Shown here piece after piece: positions 2,881-62,650 of a stretch of DNA of 64,000 bases. This DNA is from a virus (lineage: Duplodnaviria > Caudoviricetes), in the IMG/VR virus record IMGVR_UViG_3300043414_000372, positions 32,001 to 96,000 of that record. One strand, written 5' to 3'. The translations under genes and the position numbers were made by a program. Each line of letters begins with the position of its first letter. Within the stretch, counting starts at the first letter, position 1. Below the pieces are notes generated by a model. The model was not told the origin of the DNA. It saw only the letters and a program-made list of their open reading frames with translations, and ran no database searches.

Positions 2881-3148
2881 ATTTCTTCTGAATTTCGCTT
2901 TCAGTATTATTCTTTATTAATTGGTCTATCAATGTTGGATATACTCGTCGGTAATATTCAATCATTTTATCCCAATCACTATCTACTACCTTCCCCTCAA
3001 CTACGCATTTGTCAATGTTCTTTTTATTAAAATCTAAAATGACATTGCACGTTTGAATGTCAGAGTTCCGTACTTTTTTGCTAATACTAACTTGTTCATC
3101 AATCTGTCCATTGGGTTTACGAACAAAAGTAATCAATAAATATCTCAC
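2879..3148 (-). CDS. Hypothetical protein
   Basis: 89-aa ORF overlapping the clamp-loader stop by 4 nt. Confidence 0.7.
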   Translation of the reverse strand: MRYLLITFVRKPNGQIDEQVSISKKVRNSDIQTCNVILDFNKKNIDKCVVEGKVVDSDWDKMIEYYRRVYPTLIDQLIKNNTESEIQKK

Positions 3149-4071
3149 GATGTTAACTCCACTAATGTTGCTGCTAGACTAATCTCAGGGATTCCAACTA
3201 ATGGCAAGTTTGCTAATCCATTACGAATGACAATGATACTAGCATCACGTTTTTCTTGTTGCTTGCCCCATAAGTCTAAGTTGTCATACATCCACTTATA
3301 AGTATCTTCAATACGTGTTGGGTACAACGCAATGTATTGCATCAGTTGCTGGCGTCCCTCAAGAATCTTGCCAGCTTTAAACAATGTTGTTGCTTCTAAC
3401 AACAATTCATGTTCACTGTTACCTTCTGATTGTGGGGGCAATAGTTTTCCTGTGCTGCTATTGACTTGTAGTTGATTCAAGCATTTACGCAAGTCTGGAT
3501 ATGCTACACGAACATAGCTGTCTAATGTATCCAAGTCAAACTCAATACCCTCAGTTACAAGAACAGTTGCTGCCCTTGCTGTATATTCTGTGCGATCAGG
3601 CTTAGCGATATGAAATTTGTGGCAACGACTTTCACGCAATGCTGGAATGATTTTGTGTTCATAGTTACAAGTAAGAATGAACCTTACTGTATCAGCATAT
3701 GCTTCCATATCGTTACGCAATGCTGCTTGAAACTCTGGACTTGTATAGTCAGCCTCGTCAAGTAAAATCACTTTAAACTTACCGAACGGCATTGTTTGTG
3801 CGAATCCATTAATCTTATCACGCACAACTGCTACACCATTCTCGCGGCTCGCATTGATTTCTAATACATCATAATCTTCTACACCAAGTTCATTAATTAA
3901 AACTTTAGCAAGAGTAGTCTTACCAGTACCCGGGTCGCCACTTAGTAATAGATGTGGGATAGAGCCATTGGCTATCCAACCTTCTACTTGTTGTTTTTGT
4001 CGTTCATCTACAAAGACATAATCTGTTACAGATTTCGGACGATACAACTCAACCCATAATTTATTTTTCAT
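3145..4071 (-). CDS. Sliding-clamp loader AAA+ subunit (gp44/RFC-small-like)
   Basis: LWVELYRP box II, GDPGTGKT Walker A, INAS, LLDEAD Walker B, TCN sensor, SRC motif. Confidence 0.95.
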   Translation of the reverse strand: MKNKLWVELYRPKSVTDYVFVDERQKQQVEGWIANGSIPHLLLSGDPGTGKTTLAKVLINELGVEDYDVLEINASRENGVAVVRDKINGFAQTMPFGKFKVILLDEADYTSPEFQAALRNDMEAYADTVRFILTCNYEHKIIPALRESRCHKFHIAKPDRTEYTARAATVLVTEGIEFDLDTLDSYVRVAYPDLRKCLNQLQVNSSTGKLLPPQSEGNSEHELLLEATTLFKAGKILEGRQQLMQYIALYPTRIEDTYKWMYDNLDLWGKQQEKRDASIIVIRNGLANLPLVGIPEISLAATLVELTS

Positions 4072-4755: not shown

Positions 4756-5133
4756 TTACTTCTTCTTTGTTGATTTTTTAATTTCTTCTTCTTTGATTTT
4801 TTCAATTTCTAAATCATCTTCAAATGATTCTTCTAATTCTAATTCTTCAGGAAGAAGTTCTGCTACGTCAATCTTTGCTGGTTTGGTAGCATCAGGTTGT
4901 AATTTTTGCTGAGATTTTTTAGTTACTTGTGCGGAACGATTACCTACTGTTTTGGTATAAGCGTTATTTACTTTGTCTGTTACTGGTTTTACGACTCTAC
5001 CAAATGCATCAATTGTGTCTCCGCGGGCGTTAAGATTCTTAACATTCCCCACTGCTCGTGTTTTTTCATTTTTTTGAATCATGGCGCCCATGTCCACGCT
5101 TTTACCCATTGCTGATCTGTATATACTTGCCAT
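4756..5133 (-). CDS. Hypothetical protein
   Basis: 125-aa ORF preceded by GGAG RBS. Confidence 0.7.
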   Translation of the reverse strand: MASIYRSAMGKSVDMGAMIQKNEKTRAVGNVKNLNARGDTIDAFGRVVKPVTDKVNNAYTKTVGNRSAQVTKKSQQKLQPDATKPAKIDVAELLPEELELEESFEDDLEIEKIKEEEIKKSTKKK

Positions 5134-5144
5134 TTTTAATCTCC

Positions 5145-5654
5145 TTATTTTAAGAATTCGTCTACCGATAATTGATAGTACAAACTATTTATACGATGAA
5201 TCCCGATCAAATACAATACATAACTAGCTACACTACTGCCACGACCTACACCCCATACTATGTTATTTCTACGCATTGTATCCACAAGATACTTTAGATA
5301 CTTCAATAATGGGAACATATTCCTATCATGGAATTTTAATAGTTCATCCCCTGCACGTTGCAATTCTTCTTCGTTTTTACATTGATCCAATACCCATTTA
5401 GCAATGTCAATTTCGTAGTATTCTTGGGGCATTTGCCATTGTGATTGATTTAGTTCATCAAATTCTTCTAGTGATAGTTTGGTATCAACATATTCTACTA
5501 GTGTGGGTAGATTTTCATCTGAGAGAAAGATACTATCCAAATTGATTTGTTTATCTACGAAACATCCTTTGATAGTGCGTATAGGATCACGCATATACAA
5601 GTCACAGAGGTCATTTTCTGTGAGGATAATTTGTCCGTAATTGTCAGTTTTCAT
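5145..5654 (-). CDS. Family-C (DnaE-like) DNA polymerase, N-terminal palm fragment
   Basis: WGVGRGSSVASYVLYLIGI...YYQLSVDEFL matches DnaE GPGRGS-x-AGS-L-V-x-Y-x-LGIT...Y-x-L-x-FERFL. Confidence 0.85.
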   Translation of the reverse strand: MKTDNYGQIILTENDLCDLYMRDPIRTIKGCFVDKQINLDSIFLSDENLPTLVEYVDTKLSLEEFDELNQSQWQMPQEYYEIDIAKWVLDQCKNEEELQRAGDELLKFHDRNMFPLLKYLKYLVDTMRRNNIVWGVGRGSSVASYVLYLIGIHRINSLYYQLSVDEFLK

Positions 5655-5660
5655 CTATGT

Positions 5661-5689
5661 ATTATAACATAGACTTTTGTGTAAATCAA
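5661..5689 (-). promoter_or_regulatory. sigma70-type promoter with extended -10
   Basis: TTGATT-17 nt-TATAAT with TG-n before the -10; 6 nt before the ATG. Confidence 0.65.
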
Positions 5690-6295
5690 CTATATTGGTT
5701 GTTTTTCATGGTCATTACTGAAAATAATTTCAGTAGTAGTATATTCTTTTTGTTCCCAATCTAACCCAACACTTGCCCAATCGCTATGTTGTTTTACCAA
5801 TCTAACAATTTTATCCTTTTTGTTAGTCTTGAGTATGTCGGACATGTTAGTAGAACTATCACTCCACCAGCCTTTGTTACCAAACGGGTGATTAGCAACC
5901 GTTTCTATATCATATACAAATTTAACATCATCACTTAATCCAGACATAAGTGAAAGATCAGTAATGTGTAATTTACCTTCTGTTATTGCATTTAGTTTTA
6001 GTAACAACAATATGGTTATGATTTGGTCGTATGGTTCATCGGGCAATGTACAGACTTTGATATCAGCCTGCATATACTTTTCTATAGCTTTTTTTTCTGA
6101 ATCTTGTACAAAAACACTATTACCCAAACATTCATGTAAGAAGTAATGTATCCTATCCATAGCTATATTTTGTTCTTTAATAGATGCTGTATCGACTTCC
6201 ATTTTTAATGCAAGTTCGTAGATGGTCATTGAGAATTCACCCTCAAAGTAAACCCCAGCTTGGAATGCGAATTCACGTTCTATTTTTGTTGCCAA
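5690..6295 (-). CDS. Hypothetical protein
   Basis: 201-aa ORF with GAGG RBS. Confidence 0.75.
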   Translation of the reverse strand: MATKIEREFAFQAGVYFEGEFSMTIYELALKMEVDTASIKEQNIAMDRIHYFLHECLGNSVFVQDSEKKAIEKYMQADIKVCTLPDEPYDQIITILLLLKLNAITEGKLHITDLSLMSGLSDDVKFVYDIETVANHPFGNKGWWSDSSTNMSDILKTNKKDKIVRLVKQHSDWASVGLDWEQKEYTTTEIIFSNDHEKQPI

Positions 6296-12260: not shown

Positions 12261-15103
12261 ACGATTGCTCCTTGGGAGAAGTACACACGGCCTTCATAAA
12301 GTTCATTATTTTGCATTGAACTACCAGTTGCGGTATTTGAGTACATTAAAGCCGCTTTACTTGCTGTTGGGAACGCAACTGGGTTTGGCGTAACTAAAGG
12401 AGTTGCAACGATTGCGAGTGCGCTAGTGATGTTTGTTGTCAAGGGTTTACCAATAATTGGCGTACCGTTGACGATTGTGTATGGGGCAATGTAACCAGCC
12501 GACAAGTAAGTAGCGTTAATGGCATCCCAAGTTCCGACAAAAACAAAACCTTTAGATGCAGAAAGCGGCGACAAAATAGCCAAGTTGTTTCCACCTTGTG
12601 GGGAAGTAGAAAATGCATTTACAGAAAAATTTGTTGAAGCAAAAGTAGGCACTAAGTTTGCCAAATCAACACAAAACATACCTACTGTTCCAGCGCCAGC
12701 ACTAACAGCAATTGCCCTTGTTGAACTTACTGCTACTGCGTAAAAATTACCTCCATAAGTCATAGCAGCACTACTGTTTAGAATTAAAGGCCCATAAACA
12801 GTAGGTAGTTGGAATGTCCATGTTCCACCAGATACGCTAAAACCAATTGCATACATATAGTTAGAAGAACCATTAGTTGCAAAAATAATTCCAGTGGTTG
12901 CGGTTAATGCAACAATGTTACCTCTACCTGCTGTACCTGTACTAAAAGATGTTTGAGTTCCAGCAGTGATAGCTGTACCACTTACTGTAATTGTATTAAC
13001 ATACGCCGATCCTCCAAAACCTGCAACTACCGCTGATGTACTTGATGTCGCCGCAATAGATATGCCATAAGTCATATTTCCTGCAAGAGTTATTACTGGT
13101 GTACCAATCGTTAAAGTAGAACCAGAAATATTTAAAGTAACTGTGTAACCATTTGTGGTAGTTCCATAAGCTATAACACACTGAGTTGATGACAATGCAC
13201 ATATTGCCATTTTGTACCAAGTAGGAGAATTGGCAGTAGTAATTCCAAAATTAATGCTGCTTGTTACCGCATAACTTGTGCCAGTAATCGTAATTAATTT
13301 AGCAACAAGAGGGACTGCTGATAAAGTTGGATCAATATTAGGCTGATAAAGAAGTATTGCTTGTGTCGGACTTATAGAAACAAACGTAGGAACCATATAG
13401 GTGCTGTTAAAGATAGCACTAGAGCCCACTTGACTTCCCACCCACAGTGGGTATGCGGTTCCTACTGAAGAATTACCCCCAGTAATAACATTTGCCGCGC
13501 TGCTACCGGCGTTTCCAACGTACCCAGAGTTATAAGCATAAATGCAAGTTGATGCGCTTGGTGTTGCCACAGCAGGTGCTTGCATAGCACAAGAACCAAC
13601 GATACCGTAGAAAATTTGAGATGAATTAACTATCGTTGTGTTTGATTTCGTGGTAGTTGTTCCACTAATTGTTAAATAATATGAAGTAGGATAAGGTGTA
13701 TAATTGTTGGAAAAAAGCAATGCTTGTGTTGCGGATATTGCAGAAATACTTGGAGCATAATAACTGCCTCCAGAATCAATAAATAACTCATTGCCGGCAG
13801 TAATAGTAAATCCGCTTACACTACAAGTCATTGCATAAAGGGCACCAGCACTATTTGCATAATAAGAAACAATAAATTTTGTTGCGCTTAATGCTGTTAT
13901 TTGTGCAGAAATAGCATAGTTTGCCGAATTGATGGTAAGGCTATTAACATATGTTGTCGTAGTTCCTGATATTGAATAAAGCCCAACGGCAATCTCTGTA
14001 CCAGATGCTGGACTATATACAAAAGCCACTAAAGTAGAGGACAAAGATACACATTGACCTCCCCACGCAGCTGTAGAACCATAGGTTGTTAATCCGTTAT
14101 TTATTGCGCCGTACGTTAAAGTTGAGCCGCTAATTGTTGCAACTAATGCATATTGAGTTCCAGAACCGTATACCCCAGTAGCCATAATCAGTGCCGTAGT
14201 GGCAGTTAACATTGCTATAGATGGGTTATATACATAATAATTATTAGCATTCGTACTCAAAATTGCTATTGATTCTGTGCCAACAGTTATGGTCGTTCCA
14301 GATACTGTAATAGGTACAGCAGAAATACTATTAGGAGTGTTTTGGCCAGAGTTCCAAGCAATAATTCCTGTTGTGGAACTTAACATTTGTATGGTGGCAT
14401 TTTTTCCACCAGAATAATACATTGACCCAGAAACAAATACAGGGGTACTCATCGTAAGTACACCAGAATTGTTTGTAACTACTGCTGCATAAATAGTAGT
14501 CGTACCACTATATGATCCAGTAGTGGCTTTTAACAGGTTAAACACATACACTGCTTGTGTTGAACTAATTGCGGAGATTTGAGTCCCACCACCGGGGTAC
14601 ATATTTCCTTTAGTAATACCTTGTATGCTTGTAATAGAAGGGGCGCTATTAACAATATCAGACGGAAAATTTCCAGTTGTCCAAACACCCGCAGCGGTAG
14701 ACACATCAATTGCCCACATATAGTAGCCAGTGTCTGGGCCAATAGCTAACAGGTAGTTTCCTGCGTTGTCGTTGACAATTAAGGTGTAGGTCTGGCTCAA
14801 ATTTTTGAGCATGAAATTAGCCAGAGTCAAAGCCGATGCAGAAGGTAAAGTGACCGTGATGTCTGCTGTGGGGGTAATTGCTACGTTGTTGCCGCCTACT
14901 GTTGTTGGAAGTGTTAAATCACTTGCTTGTGCGGGGTAATTTACAATACCACCGCTGCCCGGGCCAGTAGCGCCTGCAATACCAGTGGCACCTGTTGGTC
15001 CAGTAGCACCACTTGGCCCAGTAGCACCAGTTGCTCCCTGATCACCAAGACTTGCTGGATCCCATGTGCTTGTGTTTGTGTTATAATATTTTAGTACGGA
15101 CAT
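12257..15103 (-). CDS. Receptor-binding/fibre protein B (short collagen stub plus about 13 beta-propeller-like blades)
   Basis: [13 protein letters not shown] stub; repeated blade motif like I-x-A-L-S-x-T-x-A-I-I-x-Y separated by TISGTTIT linkers. Confidence 0.7.
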   Translation of the reverse strand: MSVLKYYNTNTSTWDPASLGDQGATGATGPSGATGPTGATGIAGATGPGSGGIVNYPAQASDLTLPTTVGGNNVAITPTADITVTLPSASALTLANFMLKNLSQTYTLIVNDNAGNYLLAIGPDTGYYMWAIDVSTAAGVWTTGNFPSDIVNSAPSITSIQGITKGNMYPGGGTQISAISSTQAVYVFNLLKATTGSYSGTTTIYAAVVTNNSGVLTMSTPVFVSGSMYYSGGKNATIQMLSSTTGIIAWNSGQNTPNSISAVPITVSGTTITVGTESIAILSTNANNYYVYNPSIAMLTATTALIMATGVYGSGTQYALVATISGSTLTYGAINNGLTTYGSTAAWGGQCVSLSSTLVAFVYSPASGTEIAVGLYSISGTTTTYVNSLTINSANYAISAQITALSATKFIVSYYANSAGALYAMTCSVSGFTITAGNELFIDSGGSYYAPSISAISATQALLFSNNYTPYPTSYYLTISGTTTTKSNTTIVNSSQIFYGIVGSCAMQAPAVATPSASTCIYAYNSGYVGNAGSSAANVITGGNSSVGTAYPLWVGSQVGSSAIFNSTYMVPTFVSISPTQAILLYQPNIDPTLSAVPLVAKLITITGTSYAVTSSINFGITTANSPTWYKMAICALSSTQCVIAYGTTTNGYTVTLNISGSTLTIGTPVITLAGNMTYGISIAATSSTSAVVAGFGGSAYVNTITVSGTAITAGTQTSFSTGTAGRGNIVALTATTGIIFATNGSSNYMYAIGFSVSGGTWTFQLPTVYGPLILNSSAAMTYGGNFYAVAVSSTRAIAVSAGAGTVGMFCVDLANLVPTFASTNFSVNAFSTSPQGGNNLAILSPLSASKGFVFVGTWDAINATYLSAGYIAPYTIVNGTPIIGKPLTTNITSALAIVATPLVTPNPVAFPTASKAALMYSNTATGSSMQNNELYEGRVYFSQGAIV

Positions 15104-15108
15104 TTATT
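15006..15108. repeat. 103-bp direct repeat, copy 1 (5' end of fibre B)
   Basis: Matches 16855-16957 with 2 mismatches. Confidence 0.95.
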
Positions 15109-15334
15109 CTTTCCAGGCTGGATCTATTGTCCATGTTCCGTTATCGTACAAATATTTATTTCCAACCCAGTCCTCAGGTGGAGTAACGTTTTCAATAAGT
15201 TGAGCATTGGATGCGTTCAAATCACCAATGTCGTAACCTGGCGCATGAACTCGGTCAGTGCCAAAAGTTATGATTTCATTATCATTCCATATATATTTAG
15301 AACGTTTTGTTTCAGTGTGAATTAGTGTTTTCAT
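15104..15334 (-). CDS. Small tail-fibre-associated protein (chaperone-like)
   Basis: 76-aa ORF directly after adhesin A; TPPEDWVGNKYLYDNGTW motif. Confidence 0.6.
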   Translation of the reverse strand: MKTLIHTETKRSKYIWNDNEIITFGTDRVHAPGYDIGDLNASNAQLIENVTPPEDWVGNKYLYDNGTWTIDPAWKE

Positions 15335-15335
15335 T

Positions 15336-16952
15336 TTATCCTTTAACTAGAATGTTTGTTGATGTTAAAGCCAGTCCAGCATACGGTTGTGAACTTGCTG
15401 AAGATGATAGTGTGCCATCTGGAGCAACATAGTATTTAAGACCCGGTGTTAGACTAGATTGTGAATTGTTCGTGCCGCTTACAACATTTATGGTAGCGGT
15501 TTGACCATTTGTATACGCTGCACTAGAAAACCCAAGAAAATTACTAGTGGACAAAGTTCCAGCGTATGCGTTATATCCAACTACAGAAGGATAAAAACTT
15601 CCAGTAGTATTAAGCCCTGCTATAATTATTAAATATAAATTATCAGCAATACAACCTTGAATGCCTTGTCCTGAGATATTAGGCACTATAGATGCATAGT
15701 CTGTTGATGTAAAGGTTGTTCCAGAAATAGATGTTATTACTACAGGAATAGCGCCACAGATAAAAATAATTTTCCCAGAAGCCGAATAATAAAAACCAGT
15801 ATACCCTTGATAACTTGCGTTTCTAGATACGTTTAATGTTGCTGGAGTTCCAAAAGTAATTGTAGACCCCGAAATTGAACCAACAGCAGCATACACTAAA
15901 GACCCCGCCGCTGAACACCAACAAGCCATGACTTTCTGGTCGACAGGAGAGTACGCTAATCCAAATCCATATCTATAACTAGTACCAGACGATGATTGCA
16001 AAACAACTTCTGACCCAACGAAAGTTAACGTTGTTCCCGATAATGTACCTATTCTTACTGTTGGATAATAAGAACTATTAAAACTACCAACAATAAATTT
16101 ATTATTAACAGTATCTTTTGTAATTGCAGTCCACATTGTTTGACCCGTACCATTTATGGCGGTTGTTGTACTTCCTATAGATATAGAAGAAGTTGTAACC
16201 GTAAGAACGGTTGCAGTAGTAGCACTAACACTTGTGTCACACGTAACCCATATTACTTTTTGACTTGCAGAATCATAATAAAGTGATTGTCCATAATTAT
16301 TAGTACTTGTAGTTGATACAGCACCTTGCGCGCCGGCTGTTATGCCTGTGCCAGATGTATAAGCGCATATAACATAAGGATAACTATCAGAATTTTGACT
16401 AAAAGCAAACATATGCTGAGAAATGTGCGATATGAATGTTGCTCCTGTTCCTGTTCCTGAACCTAAACTTACATTATTTGAATAAATTACTACAGGAGTA
16501 CCAAATGTAATACTGTTTGAGGTAACAATACCAGCCGCAGCCATTAAATACAAGGTAGTAGGCTGCATATACCAAACTACAACAGTATTTTTAACCGGGT
16601 CATAAGAAGCATTTATAAAAGAAACATATCCGTTAGCCGCCGATGTTGTTGACGCATAGGTGAGACCAACGCCTACGGTAGCCGCAGATGATGTGATGGC
16701 AGGTACGCTCACCGTACCATCGCTATTCAAGATAACAGTCGCACCATTTCCCAATGTGCCTGATGCCACAGCGGTGACAGTTCCTGCTGATGCACCAGTA
16801 GCGCCTGCAGGACCTGTAGCGCCAGTTGTACCGTTTGACCCAGTAGCGCCAGTTGCACCACTTGGTCCAGTAGCACCAGTCGCTCCCTGATCACCAAGAC
16901 TTGCTGGATCCCATGTGCTTGTGTTTGTGTTATAATATTTTAGTACGGACAT
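15336..16952 (-). CDS. Receptor-binding/fibre protein A (collagen stub plus about 7 propeller-like blades)
   Basis: Same first 35 aa as 12257..15103; blades such as SYDPVKNTVVVWY, YYDSASQKVIWV and AYSPVDQKVMACW. Confidence 0.7.
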   Translation of the reverse strand: MSVLKYYNTNTSTWDPASLGDQGATGATGPSGATGATGSNGTTGATGPAGATGASAGTVTAVASGTLGNGATVILNSDGTVSVPAITSSAATVGVGLTYASTTSAANGYVSFINASYDPVKNTVVVWYMQPTTLYLMAAAGIVTSNSITFGTPVVIYSNNVSLGSGTGTGATFISHISQHMFAFSQNSDSYPYVICAYTSGTGITAGAQGAVSTTSTNNYGQSLYYDSASQKVIWVTCDTSVSATTATVLTVTTSSISIGSTTTAINGTGQTMWTAITKDTVNNKFIVGSFNSSYYPTVRIGTLSGTTLTFVGSEVVLQSSSGTSYRYGFGLAYSPVDQKVMACWCSAAGSLVYAAVGSISGSTITFGTPATLNVSRNASYQGYTGFYYSASGKIIFICGAIPVVITSISGTTFTSTDYASIVPNISGQGIQGCIADNLYLIIIAGLNTTGSFYPSVVGYNAYAGTLSTSNFLGFSSAAYTNGQTATINVVSGTNNSQSSLTPGLKYYVAPDGTLSSSASSQPYAGLALTSTNILVKG

Positions 16953-31729: not shown

Positions 31730-32362
31730 TTATAAAGAACCACCGATACCAGTAGCAATTGAACCAGCTGTTCTACCGATAGTAGCACCAACACCAGAAC
31801 CAATTGGAGATTGAATTGCGTTATCATAACGTAATGTTAATGCAATCGTTACTGCTTCGTTAGTTGCATAATTCAAGGTATTATAGTTAGCTGATTGTAA
31901 GAAGCATCCATATAGTTCCCATGTCTCTAAAACTATAGGAGCATTTGTACCGTTACCACCGTCTAAAATTTCAATATTAGTTTGAAACTTATAGTCTTGA
32001 CCAGATGCAGCACTTGCTTGCTCAACAAAGTCCATTTGCTTCTGTAATTGTTGACCAACTAACTTAGATACACTGTTTGATGCATCGTCACGAATATTGA
32101 TTGCCAATGTTTGCCATGTTGCTTTTCCAGCCAAATACATTGTTGAGTTGTATATTGGTATAGTAATTTCTTGGAACTGTACTTGCGGTCTAGCGCAATC
32201 AATAACTTGTTTTGTTAATTCTACTGTGCTTGTGTCTGTTCCAAAATTCAAAAAGTTTACTCTGAATCTGAATTGTAGTTTTGGCATTAGTAGGCCCTGA
32301 TTGCCACCGGCGTTATCAGATGCTACTGTCATGTTGAACAATGATTGTGAGGCTGTTGCCAT
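31730..32362 (-). CDS. Tail tube protein (gp19-like)
   Basis: PKLQFRFRV, RPQV-x-F, YLAGKATW, IRDD, W-x-L-x-GC and LTLRYDNA motifs; follows the sheath. Confidence 0.9.
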   Translation of the reverse strand: MATASQSLFNMTVASDNAGGNQGLLMPKLQFRFRVNFLNFGTDTSTVELTKQVIDCARPQVQFQEITIPIYNSTMYLAGKATWQTLAINIRDDASNSVSKLVGQQLQKQMDFVEQASAASGQDYKFQTNIEILDGGNGTNAPIVLETWELYGCFLQSANYNTLNYATNEAVTIALTLRYDNAIQSPIGSGVGATIGRTAGSIATGIGGSL

Positions 32363-54959: not shown

Positions 54960-56402
54960 TTATTTCTTTAATGAATTCAATAAAGACTTAAACTTTGAAC
55001 CCTGTACATCAGCATGTACAGTCCTAGTCAAGGGTTCCATAGTGATTTCACCTGTAGTTTGATCAACTGTATAATCAGTTACTGTAGCTTGTGGTTTTAA
55101 GGTACTCATAATGTCATTTGCGCTTGGCTTAGGGGTATAACTTTGTTCTCCGTCAACTCCAGGATCACTTATACGCATAGTCTCAACATCATATTCTAAA
55201 TCAATCTTCATGCCCACACCCGTTGAACTACGACTTTTCATACATTGTATTTGATACTTGCCACGCTCACGCATACTGCGACTTGTGAAAATACCAAACA
55301 CATTGTCTGCTGTGTTAATCTTACTAATACCACCTGCAATGTGACTATGATCAAATTCAATTTCATCAACTGCACTACGATTCAATTGACTTGCAGTTAC
55401 TAATAGTATCCCAAGTTCCTTAGACAGGTTACGCAATTCTTCAGCAACATATTTGTCTTTGATAAACTGATCGTTTGGATTGACCTTAACAGACACTGGC
55501 ATAACTAAATCTAAGTAATCTACCATTACAAAATCAATCTTGATTCCAGTCTGAATCTGTACCTCTTTCAAATAAGCACGAATGTCATTGACATTACTTT
55601 GTGCTGGTAAATTCTTAACACGATACTTACCGGCCTTCTTTCCTGCCATCTTAACTCTAAGTTCTGTTGTGTCAATATCTTTGCGAATTGCTTTTGTTCC
55701 CATCATGGTTAACATTGCATCAGTACGCAAACTTGTTAGTTCTTCACTCAACTCTAAAGTGATATACACACCACTCATTCCCATCTGTAACCAGCTTAGT
55801 GCAATATTCATCATCACCAATGATTTACCTGAACCTGAACCACCTGCAAAGATATTCAACTCACCTCTACTCATGCCACCATACAGAATACGATCCATCT
55901 GAGGCCAGCCTGTACTTACTTGACCACCGCTGTTAAAGTATTTGTTGATACGACCTTTAGGATCAGCAAAGTAATCTGTACCCATGTCTTTCTGCAAACT
56001 AATCTGTACTGCATCTTTGATTAGTTTCTCAACTGGTTCAAACTCACCTTTCTCAAGTAAATCCGCTGCTTTGAGAATTGCTCTTTCTAGTTCTTGTCGT
56101 TTAGTAAATGATTCAAATTCATCAAAGAACCATTCATAATGCCCATCATTCAAATCAGGCACTGGGTCAATCTCTATTCCAGTTGTTGCTTTAATTTGTG
56201 TTGGGTCCGGTAATACTCTATATTTGTCTGTATGTGACTTAAACAATTCAGCCACTGGTCTGAGTGATCTATCAAAGTTCTCGCTATTCATAATATTCAT
56301 AACACGGGTATACAATTCCGCGTTAGTAACCATCATTCTCAGGAACAATTTCTGAACTTCAGGTGTATAATCTAACTGCTTTTTAGTTTCTTGTTTTGCC
56401 AA
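54960..56402 (-). CDS. Replicative DnaB/gp41-like helicase
   Basis: GGSGSGKS Walker A, YITLELSE, VDYLDL, TASQLNR, S-x-x-x-x-x-TAD and KSR motifs. Confidence 0.95.
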   Translation of the reverse strand: MAKQETKKQLDYTPEVQKLFLRMMVTNAELYTRVMNIMNSENFDRSLRPVAELFKSHTDKYRVLPDPTQIKATTGIEIDPVPDLNDGHYEWFFDEFESFTKRQELERAILKAADLLEKGEFEPVEKLIKDAVQISLQKDMGTDYFADPKGRINKYFNSGGQVSTGWPQMDRILYGGMSRGELNIFAGGSGSGKSLVMMNIALSWLQMGMSGVYITLELSEELTSLRTDAMLTMMGTKAIRKDIDTTELRVKMAGKKAGKYRVKNLPAQSNVNDIRAYLKEVQIQTGIKIDFVMVDYLDLVMPVSVKVNPNDQFIKDKYVAEELRNLSKELGILLVTASQLNRSAVDEIEFDHSHIAGGISKINTADNVFGIFTSRSMRERGKYQIQCMKSRSSTGVGMKIDLEYDVETMRISDPGVDGEQSYTPKPSANDIMSTLKPQATVTDYTVDQTTGEITMEPLTRTVHADVQGSKFKSLLNSLKK

Positions 56403-57357
56403 TTTTCTTCCTCTGCATTTCTATTTTGATTTTACTATTTGTTGCGCTACGTAGTATACTCAATAGGGTAGGTAACTTACCATATTTTACTACTGCATCA
56501 TTTACATCTTTTACATGATCATCCCAATCCGGCAAACTAACACTATAGCCTAATTCTAATGCTCTATCACACAATGCTAAACCTGTCTTATCTCTATCTG
56601 GAACTAAAATAATTTGTTTATTCAATGTGCTTAATAACAATGCTTGGTCACTATTAATGTCATCATGCATTACCGCTACACCATCTATGCTTAGTGCATC
56701 AAATATACCCTCGGTTACAATACATACACTCCATTCTGCTTTCTGCATGTCTATATTAAACACATACCCGTGTTGTTGCTCATTAATGTATTTGGGAGTT
56801 TTATTGTCCAAGAATCTACTTGTGTGTCCTACAATTTTATTCTTATATGTATAGGGGATGATTACCCTGTTGCCCATCCTACCTTTTTCATACGGAGTGA
56901 TCAAGAAAGGATAGTCACTACTATCTATCTTCCTCGATTGCAGATACTCTGCGTATACTTTGTGTAATGGGTTATTGCTATCCACAATCTCACCCTCTGG
57001 GAGTTTGTGTTCATTGAATTTGATTTTAATCTTTTGTTTTGCTGGCTGTGTAAAGTCTATCAAGTCTTTATGTTGTAAACTTTCTAAACTCCATCTTTTA
57101 ACTTGCTGGTCATCTATACCACACCATACTAATAGATTGCGAGTTTTACTAGTGATTGTTCTGCCCAATACAAAGTTGCACTTGAATCCACAATTGAAAC
57201 AATGCATTGACCAGTTAGTGCCATCAAACTTGATACCACCGCGCATTCGTTTATCTTGTCTATGACCAAAGTGGGTACAACAGATAGCGTTAAAGCTAGT
57301 CCAGCCAGAACTTGTTTGTTTCTTTTTACCAGGTAATATAGACAGGATATCAAACAT
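56383..57357 (-). CDS. DNA primase (gp61/DnaG-like)
   Basis: N-terminal Zn finger with HCFNCG; TOPRIM VTEGIFDA and LVPD-x-D-x-x-G; KD-x-ND. Confidence 0.9.
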   Translation of the reverse strand: MFDILSILPGKKKQTSSGWTSFNAICCTHFGHRQDKRMRGGIKFDGTNWSMHCFNCGFKCNFVLGRTITSKTRNLLVWCGIDDQQVKRWSLESLQHKDLIDFTQPAKQKIKIKFNEHKLPEGEIVDSNNPLHKVYAEYLQSRKIDSSDYPFLITPYEKGRMGNRVIIPYTYKNKIVGHTSRFLDNKTPKYINEQQHGYVFNIDMQKAEWSVCIVTEGIFDALSIDGVAVMHDDINSDQALLLSTLNKQIILVPDRDKTGLALCDRALELGYSVSLPDWDDHVKDVNDAVVKYGKLPTLLSILRSATNSKIKIEMQRKKIGKTRN

Positions 57358-58245: not shown

Positions 58246-58626
58246 ATGATCCAAAACGAATTCTTTAAACGATTGACAGAAAATCATCCGTTCATCACAG
58301 TATGTTCATATGCCAACCAAGATTATGTTGGAATTGTTCAAAACCGTGATGAGATGGTGACCACTATCTATGATTATGGTGCTATCACAGATAATACAAT
58401 CAAAGAAAAGTTTCTCTCCCTAGGAGAAATATGGTGGTGGGAATCCAATAGACTAATCCCCATTAATCTGTTTTTAAAAGAAGATTGGATTCCCTTTAAG
58501 CCCTATCTCAGGACTTTCACTAACAAAAGTCTAATAGTAGTACACGGTCCAACTTGTAGTATGGCCGAATTAGGAAAACGTAGAAGTAAACGCCGTAGCA
58601 TCACCCTCGTCAAGCGTATGCCCTAA
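58246..58626 (+). CDS. Hypothetical protein
   Basis: 126-aa ORF with WWWESNR-x-IPI motif after GATAAATA (58221-58228); 3' overlap with the polymerase fragment. Confidence 0.75.
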   Translation: MIQNEFFKRLTENHPFITVCSYANQDYVGIVQNRDEMVTTIYDYGAITDNTIKEKFLSLGEIWWWESNRLIPINLFLKEDWIPFKPYLRTFTNKSLIVVHGPTCSMAELGKRRSKRRSITLVKRMP

Positions 58627-59181
58627 CAAATTTATGTGAACAACTACTAATTGTGCATATGCAATCGCATGTGCTTTCTTAAACACATAACCATCAGTTC
58701 CCTTATCCCATACAGTTCTATTAATCTCTGACCAGACTTTCCCAATCAAATGCTTTTTGCCAGGACGAATAACTGCTAGAAACATTGCTAATCTTGGGAT
58801 GCTGTCTATAGGTTCTGGCATCTTCTCTAAGTTATAGTACTGATTGTTCAAGTGAATCAGTTTCTCAACAAAAGATTTATCCTTAAGTTTACTCCAATCA
58901 GGCTCAACCATCAATTCAGTTAGATGTTGTTCATCTCTGACATTCTCATAGACATGAACATTTAGTAAATCTAGTTTGAAGTACCCACGCTTCTCTGCTA
59001 CTGTATAATCAATACTTGCTATATCATGTATCGGGTCATAGGGAATAGGTGTAACATATACACCAGTAGCATGTTTACGAATAGGATTGACATTACGCAT
59101 TGCCGCACTTGTGTGCTTAATCAATTCAAGCAATTTATCTCTTGAACCAAAATCAATGTCAATGTCACTATCTATTCTCAC
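58570..59181 (-). CDS. Family-C (DnaE-like) DNA polymerase, catalytic fragment
   Basis: SDIDIDF (catalytic D-x-D), KHATGV, KLDLL (third Asp), AVIRPG and YVFKKAHAIAYA correspond to DnaE PDIDIDF, HAGG, KFDFL, ALYRPG and YGFNKSH. Confidence 0.88.
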   Translation of the reverse strand: MRIDSDIDIDFGSRDKLLELIKHTSAAMRNVNPIRKHATGVYVTPIPYDPIHDIASIDYTVAEKRGYFKLDLLNVHVYENVRDEQHLTELMVEPDWSKLKDKSFVEKLIHLNNQYYNLEKMPEPIDSIPRLAMFLAVIRPGKKHLIGKVWSEINRTVWDKGTDGYVFKKAHAIAYAQLVVVHINLLGHTLDEGDATAFTSTFS

Positions 59182-59726
59182 GGTGCCATTACTCCTGCTT
59201 TGATTAGTTTAGTATACGCTTTTTGTACAACAATAGCTTGTCTTTCGGCATCTTCTACTGCTTTGTGACTAGTAGAATGCCCGCCGTCACTTAGTTTGAC
59301 GCCTGCAACTTCATACAACGTTCTAGTGTCTCGTACGGTATAGAATGGCCACGGTATTCGCATTCCAAGTTGACGCCATGCGGTTTCCGCAACAACGACA
59401 TCAAATGAAGCCCCATTAGACCACACAGCGCGGCGATTCCAACAAAACTTATAAAGGGCTTCCATACATTCGCTATATGAAATACGTCCCTGATCTCCCA
59501 TTGCTTCTTCTCTTGCAGCTTCGGACTGCTCTCCCCACCATCTAATAGTATCTTCATTAATAACCCTATCATATTTTTCAGTTTGTTCATCAATCGTAGG
59601 ACGCAATTCTAATCGTTCTACTACACCATTCCCTTTAGGATCAAACCGTACAGCTCCTATAGTTAATATAACACAAAATGGACTTGTGTCAAGTGTCTCC
59701 ATGTCAATCATTATATCATTTGCCAT
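59178..59726 (-). CDS. DEDDh 3'-5' exonuclease (start revised to MANDIMID)
   Basis: Exo I IDMET, Exo II WSNGASFD, Exo III HKAVEDA; TAATG overlap upstream and GTGA overlap downstream. Confidence 0.88.
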   Translation of the reverse strand: MANDIMIDMETLDTSPFCVILTIGAVRFDPKGNGVVERLELRPTIDEQTEKYDRVINEDTIRWWGEQSEAAREEAMGDQGRISYSECMEALYKFCWNRRAVWSNGASFDVVVAETAWRQLGMRIPWPFYTVRDTRTLYEVAGVKLSDGGHSTSHKAVEDAERQAIVVQKAYTKLIKAGVMAP

Positions 59727-59998
59727 TACATTTGCCACATTTCATACATTGTTATTAATCTATCATCCCACAACTCTATTGTAACACATCCTCCAACTAA
59801 GGAGAAGTCCCAACCTTGGTGTCTTTCACCGAAATTTCTTCTCATCCATTTTACAATGATAGATGGATCTTCTTTGTGATATTTACAGTCTCTGTTGTAG
59901 ACTGTTCTGTTGCCATTTTTATATTTGTTATCTCTACAACCATTGATATAGACAGTCGGGGCAGCTAGGCCAAATGAGCCAGTGTTCATGTATGCCAT
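59726..59998 (-). CDS. Small array protein (divergent member)
   Basis: KWMRRNFG...GWDF...MYEMW. Confidence 0.65.
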   Translation of the reverse strand: MAYMNTGSFGLAAPTVYINGCRDNKYKNGNRTVYNRDCKYHKEDPSIIVKWMRRNFGERHQGWDFSLVGGCVTIELWDDRLITMYEMWQM

Positions 59999-59999
59999 A

Positions 60000-60269
60000 T
60001 CATCCCCATTTCAATAAAAATATTAAGTAGAGTTTTTCATCTACTACTTCGTACCCATCAGTGATGTTACCATTAACTATATTCATTTTTACGCCATACT
60101 TCTGTTCTAGGTAATCTTCAAAATCATATGCGTCAAAATTAGTTTTGTTTTCCATGTACTCTACACGAACTTTTTTCAATGCTTCCCAATACTTCCAACG
60201 ATTCTTTCGTTGATGTAATGCTGGATCATCGTCATCATAATCTTGAAATGATTTTGATATATTGGTCAT
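60000..60269 (-). CDS. Small array protein (ends FLLKWG)
   Basis: Terminal motif; ATGA overlap. Confidence 0.7.
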   Translation of the reverse strand: MTNISKSFQDYDDDDPALHQRKNRWKYWEALKKVRVEYMENKTNFDAYDFEDYLEQKYGVKMNIVNGNITDGYEVVDEKLYLIFLLKWG

Positions 60270-60469
60270 ACCCATCTCAATGCAAAATAGGTGCTATATT
60301 CTTCTTTATAGAAATTAAATACTGCGCGGCGATCTCTTGTATCATATGTAGAAGAACGATGATATGCCCAATCAAAATCTACTCCATCAGTCCAGCCGTG
60401 TGCTTGCATTTGATGTACTATTTCTATTACTTCATTTGCGCTTTTGCCGTAGATGGTTACAGATTTCAT
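60266..60469 (-). CDS. Small array protein (ends FALRWV)
   Basis: Terminal motif; ATGA overlap. Confidence 0.7.
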   Translation of the reverse strand: MKSVTIYGKSANEVIEIVHQMQAHGWTDGVDFDWAYHRSSTYDTRDRRAVFNFYKEEYSTYFALRWV

Positions 60470-60711
60470 TCCCAGCGTAGCAAAAACAATGTTAAATCTT
60501 CAGCACGGGTAAGCATTATCTCACACTGCTTAATGTTATCTACCCAACGATTACTTCCAGTTTCATCATCATAGCCTGAATTGCCATAATTCTTTTTACA
60601 CCATTTCTTTATTTCTTTAGTGTCAACATCATCTTGGTTCTTCCAAGAGATAGTATGTATATTAACTTTGCTACCGAAATAGCGTTCTGTTTTGTGTGTA
60701 AATTTACTCAT
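60466..60711 (-). CDS. Small array protein (ends FLLRWE)
   Basis: Terminal motif; ATGA overlap. Confidence 0.7.
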   Translation of the reverse strand: MSKFTHKTERYFGSKVNIHTISWKNQDDVDTKEIKKWCKKNYGNSGYDDETGSNRWVDNIKQCEIMLTRAEDLTLFLLRWE

Positions 60712-60950
60712 GACCACCTTAAAATAAACCATGCTGCCAATTTGGGATCTTTAACTGTGATAGTAGGCACATATCTGAGTCCCATGTTACGAGGGTCAAA
60801 CACTTCATGTCCTTGTGGATAAACACACTCACTCTTGTAGAACCAGGCATAATTGTCGCCGTCAGCGCCAATCATATTGCCCTTGCCCACATGCTGGTTC
60901 AACCATTCGGTACAACCTTCGGGCACCCCTTGTCTAAACTCTACTCTCAT
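60708..60950 (-). CDS. Small array protein (ends FILRWS)
   Basis: Terminal motif; ATGA overlap. Confidence 0.7.
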   Translation of the reverse strand: MRVEFRQGVPEGCTEWLNQHVGKGNMIGADGDNYAWFYKSECVYPQGHEVFDPRNMGLRYVPTITVKDPKLAAWFILRWS

Positions 60951-61198
60951 GACCATCTCAATAAAAAAAATGTAGCATCACTACCTTCTTTGAAAGCAAT
61001 CGTGCTGTCCCAGGAATCATATTCAATTTTAGCTTCTTTTAACCAATCTTTCACATTACTAGACACACTAGGAATGTACCATGGATGCGGTATATTAACA
61101 ATAGTCCAACCCATAGCATTGTATAATACTTCTTTGTCAATGCTATCAGATATTTTTTTGGCAACTATATCAAGAATGTGTTGTTCTATATCCATCAT
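60947..61198 (-). CDS. Small array protein (ends FLLRWS)
   Basis: Terminal motif; ATGA overlap. Confidence 0.7.
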   Translation of the reverse strand: MMDIEQHILDIVAKKISDSIDKEVLYNAMGWTIVNIPHPWYIPSVSSNVKDWLKEAKIEYDSWDSTIAFKEGSDATFFLLRWS

Positions 61199-61434
61199 GA
61201 CCATCTCAATATAAAATGTGTAGCATCTTTTGCGTCTAAGAAATAGAATGTACTACCAGCCCACTCATTTTTTTGCAAACAACAATCACGCTTATGTTCA
61301 CTAACCCACCTAACCATTTCTGCAACTTGATCACACCAATCAGTCCAATCCATTCCCGGGCGTACTGTAAGATGTACCTTGTGATAATTCTTGTCAATAT
61401 CACGTTTTGCTTTTCTACGCTGCTTGCTATTCAT
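61195..61434 (-). CDS. Small array protein (ends FILRWS)
   Basis: Terminal motif; ATGA overlap. Confidence 0.7.
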   Translation of the reverse strand: MNSKQRRKAKRDIDKNYHKVHLTVRPGMDWTDWCDQVAEMVRWVSEHKRDCCLQKNEWAGSTFYFLDAKDATHFILRWS

Positions 61435-61733
61435 GACCATCTCAATATGAAAAAGGTTCTATCTTGTTCATCACGGAACCAATACTTACGATTACTGCCT
61501 ACCCACCGAGCGTTTTCTTTATGCCAATTATTATCACCCATTATGTTTAACAGCCATTTGTCCATGTCATACCACTCTTTTTCATCATAGTTACATGGAC
61601 GCACCCAGTAGGGCCATTTAGGTTGATTGTCAGCGTAACCAGTTTCAAGGCGTTTCATGTTGATTTCATCTATCCATTGATTTGCTAAATCAGTTACCCA
61701 TCTATTGTTAGCCATAGCACGTTTCTTTATCAT
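61431..61733 (-). CDS. Small array protein (ends FILRWS)
   Basis: Terminal motif; ATGA overlap. Confidence 0.7.
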   Translation of the reverse strand: MIKKRAMANNRWVTDLANQWIDEINMKRLETGYADNQPKWPYWVRPCNYDEKEWYDMDKWLLNIMGDNNWHKENARWVGSNRKYWFRDEQDRTFFILRWS

Positions 61734-61963
61734 TGCCAAACCAATCCAAACCAAGTTGCATGTTCAGGGGTATCAAAATCTACTGTAATAACATTATTAC
61801 CTATAGCACCGCGTGGTGCTACATCTCGTCCCATTTTCATATGCCAGCCTTTACCATGCCAAAAGATTATTGGTTTACTATTTAATAGTGGACCAATGTT
61901 TTCTTGCAGCCAATGTAATATTGGTGCCCATTGTTTGCCATAAACTTTTACAGTAGCGGTCAT
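61730..61963 (-). CDS. Small array protein (ends FGLVWQ)
   Basis: WLQENIG...KP-x-x-x-W-x-G-x-GW motif shared with its neighbour. Confidence 0.7.
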   Translation of the reverse strand: MTATVKVYGKQWAPILHWLQENIGPLLNSKPIIFWHGKGWHMKMGRDVAPRGAIGNNVITVDFDTPEHATWFGLVWQ

Positions 61964-62208
61964 TCAACCCAGTCTTTTTCCAAAAGTTTTAAATGTTTTT
62001 TCATTATAAAATGTATATCACAATAAGGATCACCATGGTTACCTTGTACTAATGTCATATACCAACCCTGTCCTTCCCAGGCAACAATAGGCTTAGCGGC
62101 AACTAATTTGCCTATGTTTTTCTGTAGCCAAATTAACAGGGCGGCATAGTCTGCGCCCCATAATCTGGCCACATATTTGTAAGTCACTTGTTTTGTTTTT
62201 GTTACCAT
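61960..62208 (-). CDS. Small array protein (ends LEKDWVE)
   Basis: WLQKNIG...KP-x-x-x-W-x-G-x-GW, close paralogue of 61730..61963. Confidence 0.7.
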   Translation of the reverse strand: MVTKTKQVTYKYVARLWGADYAALLIWLQKNIGKLVAAKPIVAWEGQGWYMTLVQGNHGDPYCDIHFIMKKHLKLLEKDWVE

Positions 62209-62417
62209 CTTAAACTACAAAAAATGTAGTCTCGTTCATATCTAAATTTTATTCTTACTTCAAATTCATCCCAGGTGCACAATGTGTGCCTTTCATAATT
62301 TTCAATTTTATTACATAACCAATCTATCACTTCAATACGATGCAGTTGCCGGCGATTTTCATCTAGTTTAATAACACGTTCATGCCAACCCGGTCGTATA
62401 TCTTCCCATCTTCTCAT
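62202..62417 (-). CDS. Small array protein (ends CSLRW)
   Basis: Terminal motif; ATGA overlap. Confidence 0.7.
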   Translation of the reverse strand: MRRWEDIRPGWHERVIKLDENRRQLHRIEVIDWLCNKIENYERHTLCTWDEFEVRIKFRYERDYIFCSLRW

Positions 62418-62650
62418 AACCATCTTAAACTAAAATGTATCGCATCACGCTCATCTTTAAATACAAAATCCATATAATCTTCTGTCATGTGTGTGTAAAA
62501 CTTCTCACCCGGCAAATCAAATTGTTCTATTGCCCAAATACAAGTTTCATCCCAATCACTAATTGTATCACCCTTCATCCAAGGGATACGAACCCTAGTA
62601 CCCTGCTTCGCCGAGGGTGTCTTTAATTCGTTTCGTAAGTTCTGCATCAC
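62414..62650 (-). CDS. Small array protein (ends FSLRWL)
   Basis: F-x-F-x-D-x-x-DA-x-x-F-x-LRW ending. Confidence 0.7.
   Translation of the reverse strand: MMQNLRNELKTPSAKQGTRVRIPWMKGDTISDWDETCIWAIEQFDLPGEKFYTHMTEDYMDFVFKDERDAIHFSLRWL

Follow-up and report, generated by a model that had tools for sequence, protein, structure and literature searches.

Jumbo phages of group 2.2 (Rak2, PA5oct, Atu_ph07) encode a "minimal, split DNA polymerase III alpha", in which two proteins represent the NTP-binding and the Mg2+/template-binding subdomains, and which accompanies a family B polymerase without the other domains of polymerase III (Pol III) (Iyer, Anantharaman, Krishnan, Burroughs & Aravind 2021, Viruses 13:63, PMC7824862). 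The split enzyme was proposed in the same work as a model of the ancestral Pol III module, and an earlier paper on phage CBB had noted a homologue of the N-terminal half as a "truncated" Pol III alpha. The split minimal Pol III alpha is, then, a system already known since 2021, of which the two genes described here are a member from an uncultured phage. Their source is an uncultured aquatic jumbo phage, represented by a linear IMG/VR viral contig of 229,851 bp with a CheckV completeness of 61%; the window, that is, the whole stretch of 64,000 nucleotides that was analysed, comprises bases 32001-96000 of this contig. The two open reading frames (ORFs) in question, numbered as in the window, are:

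5145..5654, minus strand: N-half of the minimal Pol III alpha, 169 residues (PF07733 and PHROG 11127 matches, AlphaFold2 model)
58570..59181, minus strand: C-half of the minimal Pol III alpha, 203 residues, GTG start (PHROG 11778 and DnaE profile matches)

In comparison with the group 2.2 enzyme, the same two families (PHROG 11127 and 11778), the same N/C division and genes far from each other are found: both lie on the minus strand with 52.9 kb between them, and the direction of transcription puts the C-half upstream of the N-half. The presence of a family B polymerase and the absence of other Pol III domains are also alike, although the window copy is at most 50% identical to any copy from a cultured phage. 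The main conclusion, to which a probability of about 0.85 is given, is that the products of the two ORFs are the separate chains of a single minimal nucleotidyltransferase of the C family (Pol III alpha or DnaE-type). That this enzyme is specifically a DNA-templated DNA polymerase is considered moderately probable.

At the sequence level, residues 90-168 of the N-half match positions 16-94 of the 260 of the Pfam family PF07733 (DNA_pol3_alpha) with E=1.6e-8, above the gathering score, and the protein matches PHROG 11127 (171 positions, annotated as DNA polymerase) from end to end with E=1e-39. The C-half also has an end-to-end match, to PHROG 11778 (197 positions, E=2e-55); it has no Pfam match, and a search with its single sequence against solved structures was empty as well. 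A full-library search with this protein returned 374 representatives at 50% identity, nearly all of 185-215 residues, and a profile was built from 81 representatives of that search which are 30-55% identical to the window protein. This profile matches the DnaE structures of E. coli (5fku_A, E=1.2e-5), M. tuberculosis and T. aquaticus. In the profile-structure alignment, D6-x-D8 of the C-half falls on E. coli P400-D401-F-D403, K69-x-D71 on K553-F-D555, and F167-K-K-A-H171 on F756-N-K-S-H760, where H760 is the steric-gate histidine of DnaE. Across the 81 homologues D6, D8, K69, D71 and P140 are invariant, with the finger motif FKKxH and RPG (R139-P140-G141) both nearly so, while in the N-half the stretch G135-V-G-R-G-S-S141 is invariant (n=59 N-half sequences). 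The pair has, in this way, the elements of a C-family core, namely a Pol-beta-like palm with the G-[GS] loop for the phosphates of the deoxynucleoside triphosphate (dNTP) and three catalytic aspartates (D6, D8, D71). Of a full-length DnaE, the N-terminal PHP domain, the thumb and the C-terminal beta-clamp motif, OB fold and tau-binding domain were not found.

The predicted structures led to the same family. The AlphaFold2 models have predicted local distance difference test (pLDDT) values of 93.0 for the C-half and 90.6 for the N-half, and in Foldseek searches DnaE/PolC chains fill the top 16 and the top 14 ranks, respectively, with weak E-values, none better than 2e-3. The Foldseek matches were re-aligned with VIA-align, from which all Z-scores given here are taken. 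The C-half model could be aligned over 191-198 of its 203 residues, with Z 9.6 for PolC 3f2b and 9.5 for Taq DnaE, and on E. coli 2hnh it covers residues ~397-796 with Z 8.0, the next unrelated match having Z 3.5. The palm part of the N-half is residues 73-169, which align with E. coli alpha 279-393 (Z 9.5-10.9) and with M. tuberculosis DnaE1 (Z 11.4); the structure alignments leave residues 1-69 without a match in DnaE. In both halves the significant structural matches are exclusively DnaE/PolC (Z 8-11.5). Since the N-half stops at E. coli ~393 and the C-half starts at ~397, the two tile DnaE with a gap of at most three residues, the former ending in ...YYQLSVDEFLK and the latter opening with MRIDSDIDIDF. 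An earlier, sequence-only reading of the window had proposed that the ORFs follow one another along DnaE, practically without gap or overlap, and that they hold the GRGS motif and the equivalents of D401, D403 and D555; the tiling of the structures bears out the first of these claims, and the second agrees with the profile alignment and with the invariance of these residues among homologues.

The same reading had supposed that the two products form a non-covalent heterodimer, which the complex prediction supports at the level of a model. The interaction prediction score from aligned errors (ipSAE) of the N-half/C-half complex was 0.90, compared with 0.00 for the best control; this mark was also attained by 58 of 80 solved complexes and by 2 of 110 mismatched pairs. 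The complex has 165-173 contacts, at least 94% of which are common to the runs, and the pLDDT of the partners is at least 86. Its lowest-error contacts join N-half 134-136, in the strand before GRGS, to C-half 9-11, in the DxD strand, and N-half 66-74 to C-half 43-46 and 65-67. The model indicates that the pieces complete a DnaE-like palm, and from it we infer physical binding of the halves, binding in the cell being a prediction only.

The mechanism that can be proposed follows the geometry of this model. The N-half would form the opening portion of the Pol-beta-like palm, with the strand-turn-helix whose GRGSS would hold the dNTP phosphates, and the C-half would supply the adjoining strand with the metal-binding D6 and D8, the third aspartate and the lysine (D71, K69), and shortened finger helices (RPG..., FKKAH). 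Because the cut falls inside the catalytic sheet, neither chain would be active alone. Most likely, the halves would co-fold by strand pairing, N-half W134-V136 with C-half I9-F11, into an obligate non-covalent heterodimer whose assembly would require neither an intein nor splicing.

Joining of the halves into one covalent chain after synthesis, by a split intein or by RNA trans-splicing, would also give a single enzyme from two genes, and the split-intein dnaE-n/dnaE-c genes of cyanobacteria offer a precedent. Nevertheless, neither ORF has a Hint or intein match in Pfam, and, as the halves tile with a gap of at most three residues, there is no space for intein fragments of ~100 + 35 residues. 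The C-half begins M-R-I-D-S-D, without a Cys, Ser or Thr nucleophile at +1, and start and stop are conserved separately in each of the genes. For splicing in cis, moreover, a C-half lying upstream of the N-half on the shared strand is in the wrong order. Covalent joining is considered extremely improbable, and the statement of the sequence-only reading that no intein is involved can be maintained, given the lack of both Hint/intein matches and spare length.

A further explanation would be that both genes are decaying relics of an intact dnaE, or fragments that work alone or not at all, as the description of the N-half homologue as "truncated" in the CBB paper and the long distance between the genes could suggest. 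The conservation of the breakpoint speaks strongly in the opposite direction. The stop site of the N-half is identical in 80 of 80 IMG/VR relatives (48-93% identity), directly after EF[LI][KR] in 77 and after one extra Asp in three, and relatives of the C-half start 4-6 residues before DxD, the position of the start codon, five residues ahead of the first catalytic Asp, being shared by 80 of them (ATG in 59, GTG in 18, TTG in 3). The two halves also occur strictly together: tblastn located the N-half in 95 phage records and gave 96 for the C-half, the tally of organisms being identical, and the phages with both halves include RaK2, K64-1, GAP32, CBB, PA5oct, MIJ3, Atu_ph07, Phosso, SCTP-2, XaC1 and RsoM2USA. 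The halves are separated by ~33 kb (XaC1), ~44 kb (PA5oct), ~182 kb (Atu_ph07) and ~224 kb (Phosso); in large metagenomic contigs with an N-half, the C-half was present in five of five, 37-256 kb away, and the other half was found within 2.5-3 kb at none of 80 N-half loci and none of 80 C-half loci. Looking at co-occurrence and breakpoint in related phages had been suggested beforehand as a check of the heterodimer, and some 95 cultured jumbo phages, the five large contigs and the 80 identical stops agree with it.

Furthermore, both halves are under strong purifying selection, the ratio of nonsynonymous to synonymous substitution rates being 0.06-0.13 for the two genes in pairwise comparison with close relatives (0.06-0.10 for the N-half, ~0.11 for the C-half), and the enzyme is very widespread, a metagenome search having given at least ~8000 clusters at 90% identity for either half. 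Such values, together with invariant catalytic residues, the breakpoint and the existence of fused forms, are not those of decaying genes; in addition, a cut within one beta-sheet leaves a lone half either without the dNTP loop or without the metal ligands. Nor did an intact DnaE, whose presence elsewhere in the genome would by the earlier reading have spoken against it, turn up in the 229.9-kb contig or in either of two relatives with a completeness of 100%. In the contig, the single PF07733 match is the N-half, and no PF02811 (PHP) match was obtained at E<=1, the positive control having matched in 14 of 14 genomes. The two complete relatives (359.6 kb, and 352.8 kb with terminal repeats) have one PF07733 match each, confined to profile positions <=99, and both also carry an intact family B polymerase (PolB) of 890-929 residues. 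Relics or independent fragments are, on this evidence, highly improbable.

Natural single-chain forms also exist, namely P0281 (375 residues, L004:1066-2193), which came from the full-library search, P0392 (376 residues, L174:519-1649) and P0391 (376 residues), the last two coming from other samples and being 78-81% identical to the first. The first ~186 residues of P0281 align end to end with the N-half and residues 190-371 match the C-half, the junction reading ...KEFIK, a ten-residue linker and DFDID..., and the PF07733 match spans this junction uninterrupted. All three proteins match both PHROGs over their full length; in P0392, PHROG 11127 covers residues 8-180 and PHROG 11778 residues 190-375. 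By the Rosetta-stone argument, such fused forms speak for the two halves working as a single unit, whichever way the fusion arose. A maximum-likelihood tree, midpoint-rooted only, was made of 94 C-parts, and in it the fused clade (support 100/100) lies inside clades of standalone C-halves (100/92) that begin just before DxD. The neighbours of the fused gene are those of the C-half, a convergent PHROG 11637 gene and then a structural protein, so that the simplest reading would be that split halves were secondarily re-fused where the C-half lies; given the midpoint rooting, repeated splitting may be an alternative. Joint MAFFT alignments of the fused form with both halves were left out, as the N-halves were misplaced onto the C-part. 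Homology, tiling, the conservation of catalytic residues and breakpoint, co-occurrence and the fused forms were all computed here; fused forms, the breakpoint at residue level and its conservation are not mentioned by Iyer et al. 2021 (PMC7824862).

Several points weigh against the two-chain polymerase and have to be set beside these results. Residues 1-203 of the C-half align with E. coli 397-790, so that 203 residues correspond to ~394 of E. coli: E. coli 418-537 (~120 residues, thumb included, with the domain borders of 2hnh) is shrunk to ~33 (profile positions 21-53), and where E. coli has ~100 finger residues between RPG and NKSH, the profile alignment leaves ~27. With fingers and thumb so reduced, DNA binding and templated synthesis could be weak or altered. 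An invariant Glu of the N-half (E166) stands opposite E. coli R390 when the structures are aligned. The success of the complex prediction may partly reflect the memory that the model has of single-chain DnaE structures, the contig is rated only 61% complete by CheckV, and no biochemical or genetic study of the binding or activity of the split enzyme was found in the literature searched, which yielded on this subject the 2021 paper and the remark on CBB alone.

These same observations leave room for a heterodimeric nucleotidyltransferase of Pol-beta fold which is not a templated DNA polymerase, and which would carry out untemplated addition, extend only RNA primers or make a nucleotide product. 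The absent thumb, the largely deleted fingers, the failure to find any clamp-binding part, E166 in place of R390 and the presence of a complete family B replicase in the same genome would all fit such an enzyme. On the other hand, FKKxH, which aligns on FNKSH760, and RPG are nearly invariant, and both genes lie within replication modules, one with the clamp loader and the other with the primase and helicase. This alternative is considered unlikely. As regards the fingers, no match to PF17657 (finger domain) was obtained in the contig; the C-half model still reaches E. coli 790 and retains RPG and FxKxH, which indicates, as far as a model can, that a reduced finger module is carried by this chain.

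The end of the C-half corresponds to E. coli ~790, before the beta-clamp motif, the OB fold and the tau-binding domain. Its final ~15 residues are a variable tail of low confidence, predicted to be disordered. Among relatives the length of the C-half differs (191, 194, 195, 198 and 203 residues), and in some of them an in-frame TGA truncates the tail. In the window, the tail (codons ~185-203, 58570-58626) overlaps a convergent gene. A clamp-binding role for this tail (...ATAFTSTFS) was considered and found to be unsupported, since it is variable, is truncated by stops in relatives and overlaps the convergent gene.

The setting of the two genes was also compared among phages, for which the following features are needed (coordinates of the window, except for the last, which lies outside it):

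59178..59738, minus strand: DexA/Rv2179c-like 3'-5' exonuclease (Pfam PF16473, E=4e-34)
58246..58626, plus strand: convergent small gene of 126 residues (PHROG 11637), overlapping the final 57 nucleotides of the C-half
56383..57357, minus strand: DnaG-like primase (Toprim), with weak Pfam Toprim and DNAG_N matches, two genes downstream of the C-half
3145..4071, minus strand: RFC/gp44-like clamp-loader subunit, identified from its ORF and P-loop sequence, four genes downstream of the N-half
contig 13819-16527, minus strand: intact family B polymerase (PolB) of 903 residues

The order N-half, small gene, co-chaperonin-like gene, a further gene and clamp loader is common to SCTP-2, PA5oct, Atu_ph07, K64-1 and the window, and that of C-half, convergent PHROG 11637 gene, virion structural protein, primase and DnaB helicase to PA5oct, Atu_ph07, GAP32 and the window. 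The PHROG 11637 gene is convergent to the C-half in PA5oct, Atu_ph07 and GAP32, and it likewise follows the fused form in L174. The overlap with the C-half is 57 nucleotides in the window, 14-17 in PA5oct, Atu_ph07 and GAP32, and 9 in the fused form. The constancy of this link across distant phages suggests a functional or regulatory (antisense) tie.

On its other side, the C-half is preceded by the exonuclease gene, whose TGA stop overlaps the GTG start (GTGA), with AGGAG 10 nucleotides upstream of the GTG; judging from this arrangement, the two genes are probably co-transcribed and translationally coupled. The exonuclease adjoins the C-half in 55 of 69 close relatives, inserts of ~310-830 nucleotides separating them in the others. 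It was considered as a dedicated proofreading or defining partner and rejected, as it is not adjacent in PA5oct, Atu_ph07 and GAP32 and its family is spread over 593 diverse phages. Small, tightly packed ORFs, which mostly end in ...F(F/I)LLRW(S/E/V/G), occupy the minus strand at 59726-62650, immediately upstream of the exonuclease and the C-half. A look for a promoter of the C-half operon gave nothing convincing, and the T4-type late motif TATAAATA, with five matches in the window where nine are expected, is uninformative.

For the N-half, the sequence-only reading had postulated a sigma70 promoter of its own, and such a site can be located immediately before the gene:

5661..5689, minus strand: sigma70-type promoter of the N-half, -35 TTGATT, 17-nucleotide spacer, extended -10 TG-n-TATAAT

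The site (5689-5661 in the direction of transcription) matches at 10 of 12 positions, and its -10 hexamer ends 6 nucleotides before the ATG. Promoter-like sites show no excess in the region overall (8 observed, 7.8 expected from shuffles), and the case for this promoter therefore rests on its conservation. In fact, 47 of 78 relatives have a promoter matching at >=9 of 12 positions with a -10 that ends 4-8 nucleotides before the start (exactly 6 in 38 of them), a layout found in only 14 of 3900 shuffled upstream sequences. The promoter-bearing relatives have 42 distinct upstream 60-mers and diverged spacer sequences. The claim of a separate promoter agrees, in consequence of this conservation, with what was found. 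Ahead of the N-half ATG of the window there is no Shine-Dalgarno sequence, and a similar motif occurs in just 4 of the 78 relatives. A -10 element that abuts the ATG, together with the lack of a Shine-Dalgarno, implies a putatively leaderless N-half mRNA in the lineage of the window. For the stretch 5000-5900, no RNA data set was listed as a match, and three aquatic runs share 7-12% of its sequence words, in contigs only. The layout in which a promoter abuts the start is seen in seven genes of the contig, the six besides the N-half having minus-strand starts at 32055, 81594, 96370, 123600, 146353 and 173431. In PA5oct, Atu_ph07 and K64-1 the N-half overlaps its upstream gene; the promoters described for PA5oct are TTGAC/TATAATA.

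Taking together the separate modules (clamp loader for one half, primase-helicase for the other) and the different modes of expression (leaderless sigma70 promoter and operon), it could be speculated that the split is an ancestral state maintained by selection, which would act as a temporal or spatial AND-gate on an accessory polymerase. This idea is tentative and rather doubtful. Were it true, the enzyme would be active only with both programmes on, and the rare re-fused clade would be a natural control without the gate.

As to the biological role, the family B PolB of the contig is likely to be the main replicase. Its sequence terminates in an aromatic ...FDDLFTFG tail. An aromatic C-terminal tail of that kind binds the sliding clamp in T4-type polymerases. 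From the lack of PHP, thumb and clamp- or tau-binding parts in the split enzyme, and from the intact family B replicase alongside, we infer that its most likely role would be that of a distributive accessory DNA polymerase, which would fill gaps, take part in repair or serve some specialised step at the fork.

With its 372 residues in two chains and a cut through the catalytic sheet, the enzyme would be the smallest C-family polymerase core known. In comparison with the system of Iyer et al., the lineage of the window is distinguished by a leaderless-type promoter of the N-half and by stop-start coupling of the C-half to a DexA-like exonuclease. Beyond the 2021 paper, what is added here is a breakpoint that is universally conserved at residue level, the re-fused natural forms and the conserved, putatively leaderless promoter. 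The fused forms P0281, P0391 and P0392, the exact breakpoint and a confident complex model are experimental handles, with which it can be asked whether a DnaE core without thumb and PHP polymerises, and what its job is beside a family B replicase.

Bacterial DnaE and PolC (2hnh, 5fku, 2hpi, 5lew, 3f2b) share with the phage enzyme the Pol-beta-like palm, the GS motif, the Asp triad, K-x-D, RPG and the finger-helix His. Nevertheless, DnaE has ~1160 residues in one chain, whereas the phage core distributes its 372 over two, lacks the PHP domain, thumb, beta-clamp motif, OB fold and tau-binding domain, has much shorter fingers and is not the sole polymerase of its genome. The split-intein DnaE of cyanobacteria is also a C-family polymerase made from two distant genes. 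In that case, the break comes well after the palm, and the intein halves on either side of it ligate the chains, while the phage enzyme is broken within the palm, with the GS loop before the break and the DxD strand after it, and its chains, having no intein, have to remain non-covalent. Two-gene polymerases without inteins are known in family B, as in the PolB of Methanothermobacter and in gp43A/gp43B of some T4-related phages, where the pieces are reconstituted non-covalently and the split genes are neighbours or have no more than a mobile insert between them. The principle of two non-covalent pieces would therefore be common to both, but the phage enzyme belongs to a different family and fold, and its genes are placed tens of kilobases apart in different modules.

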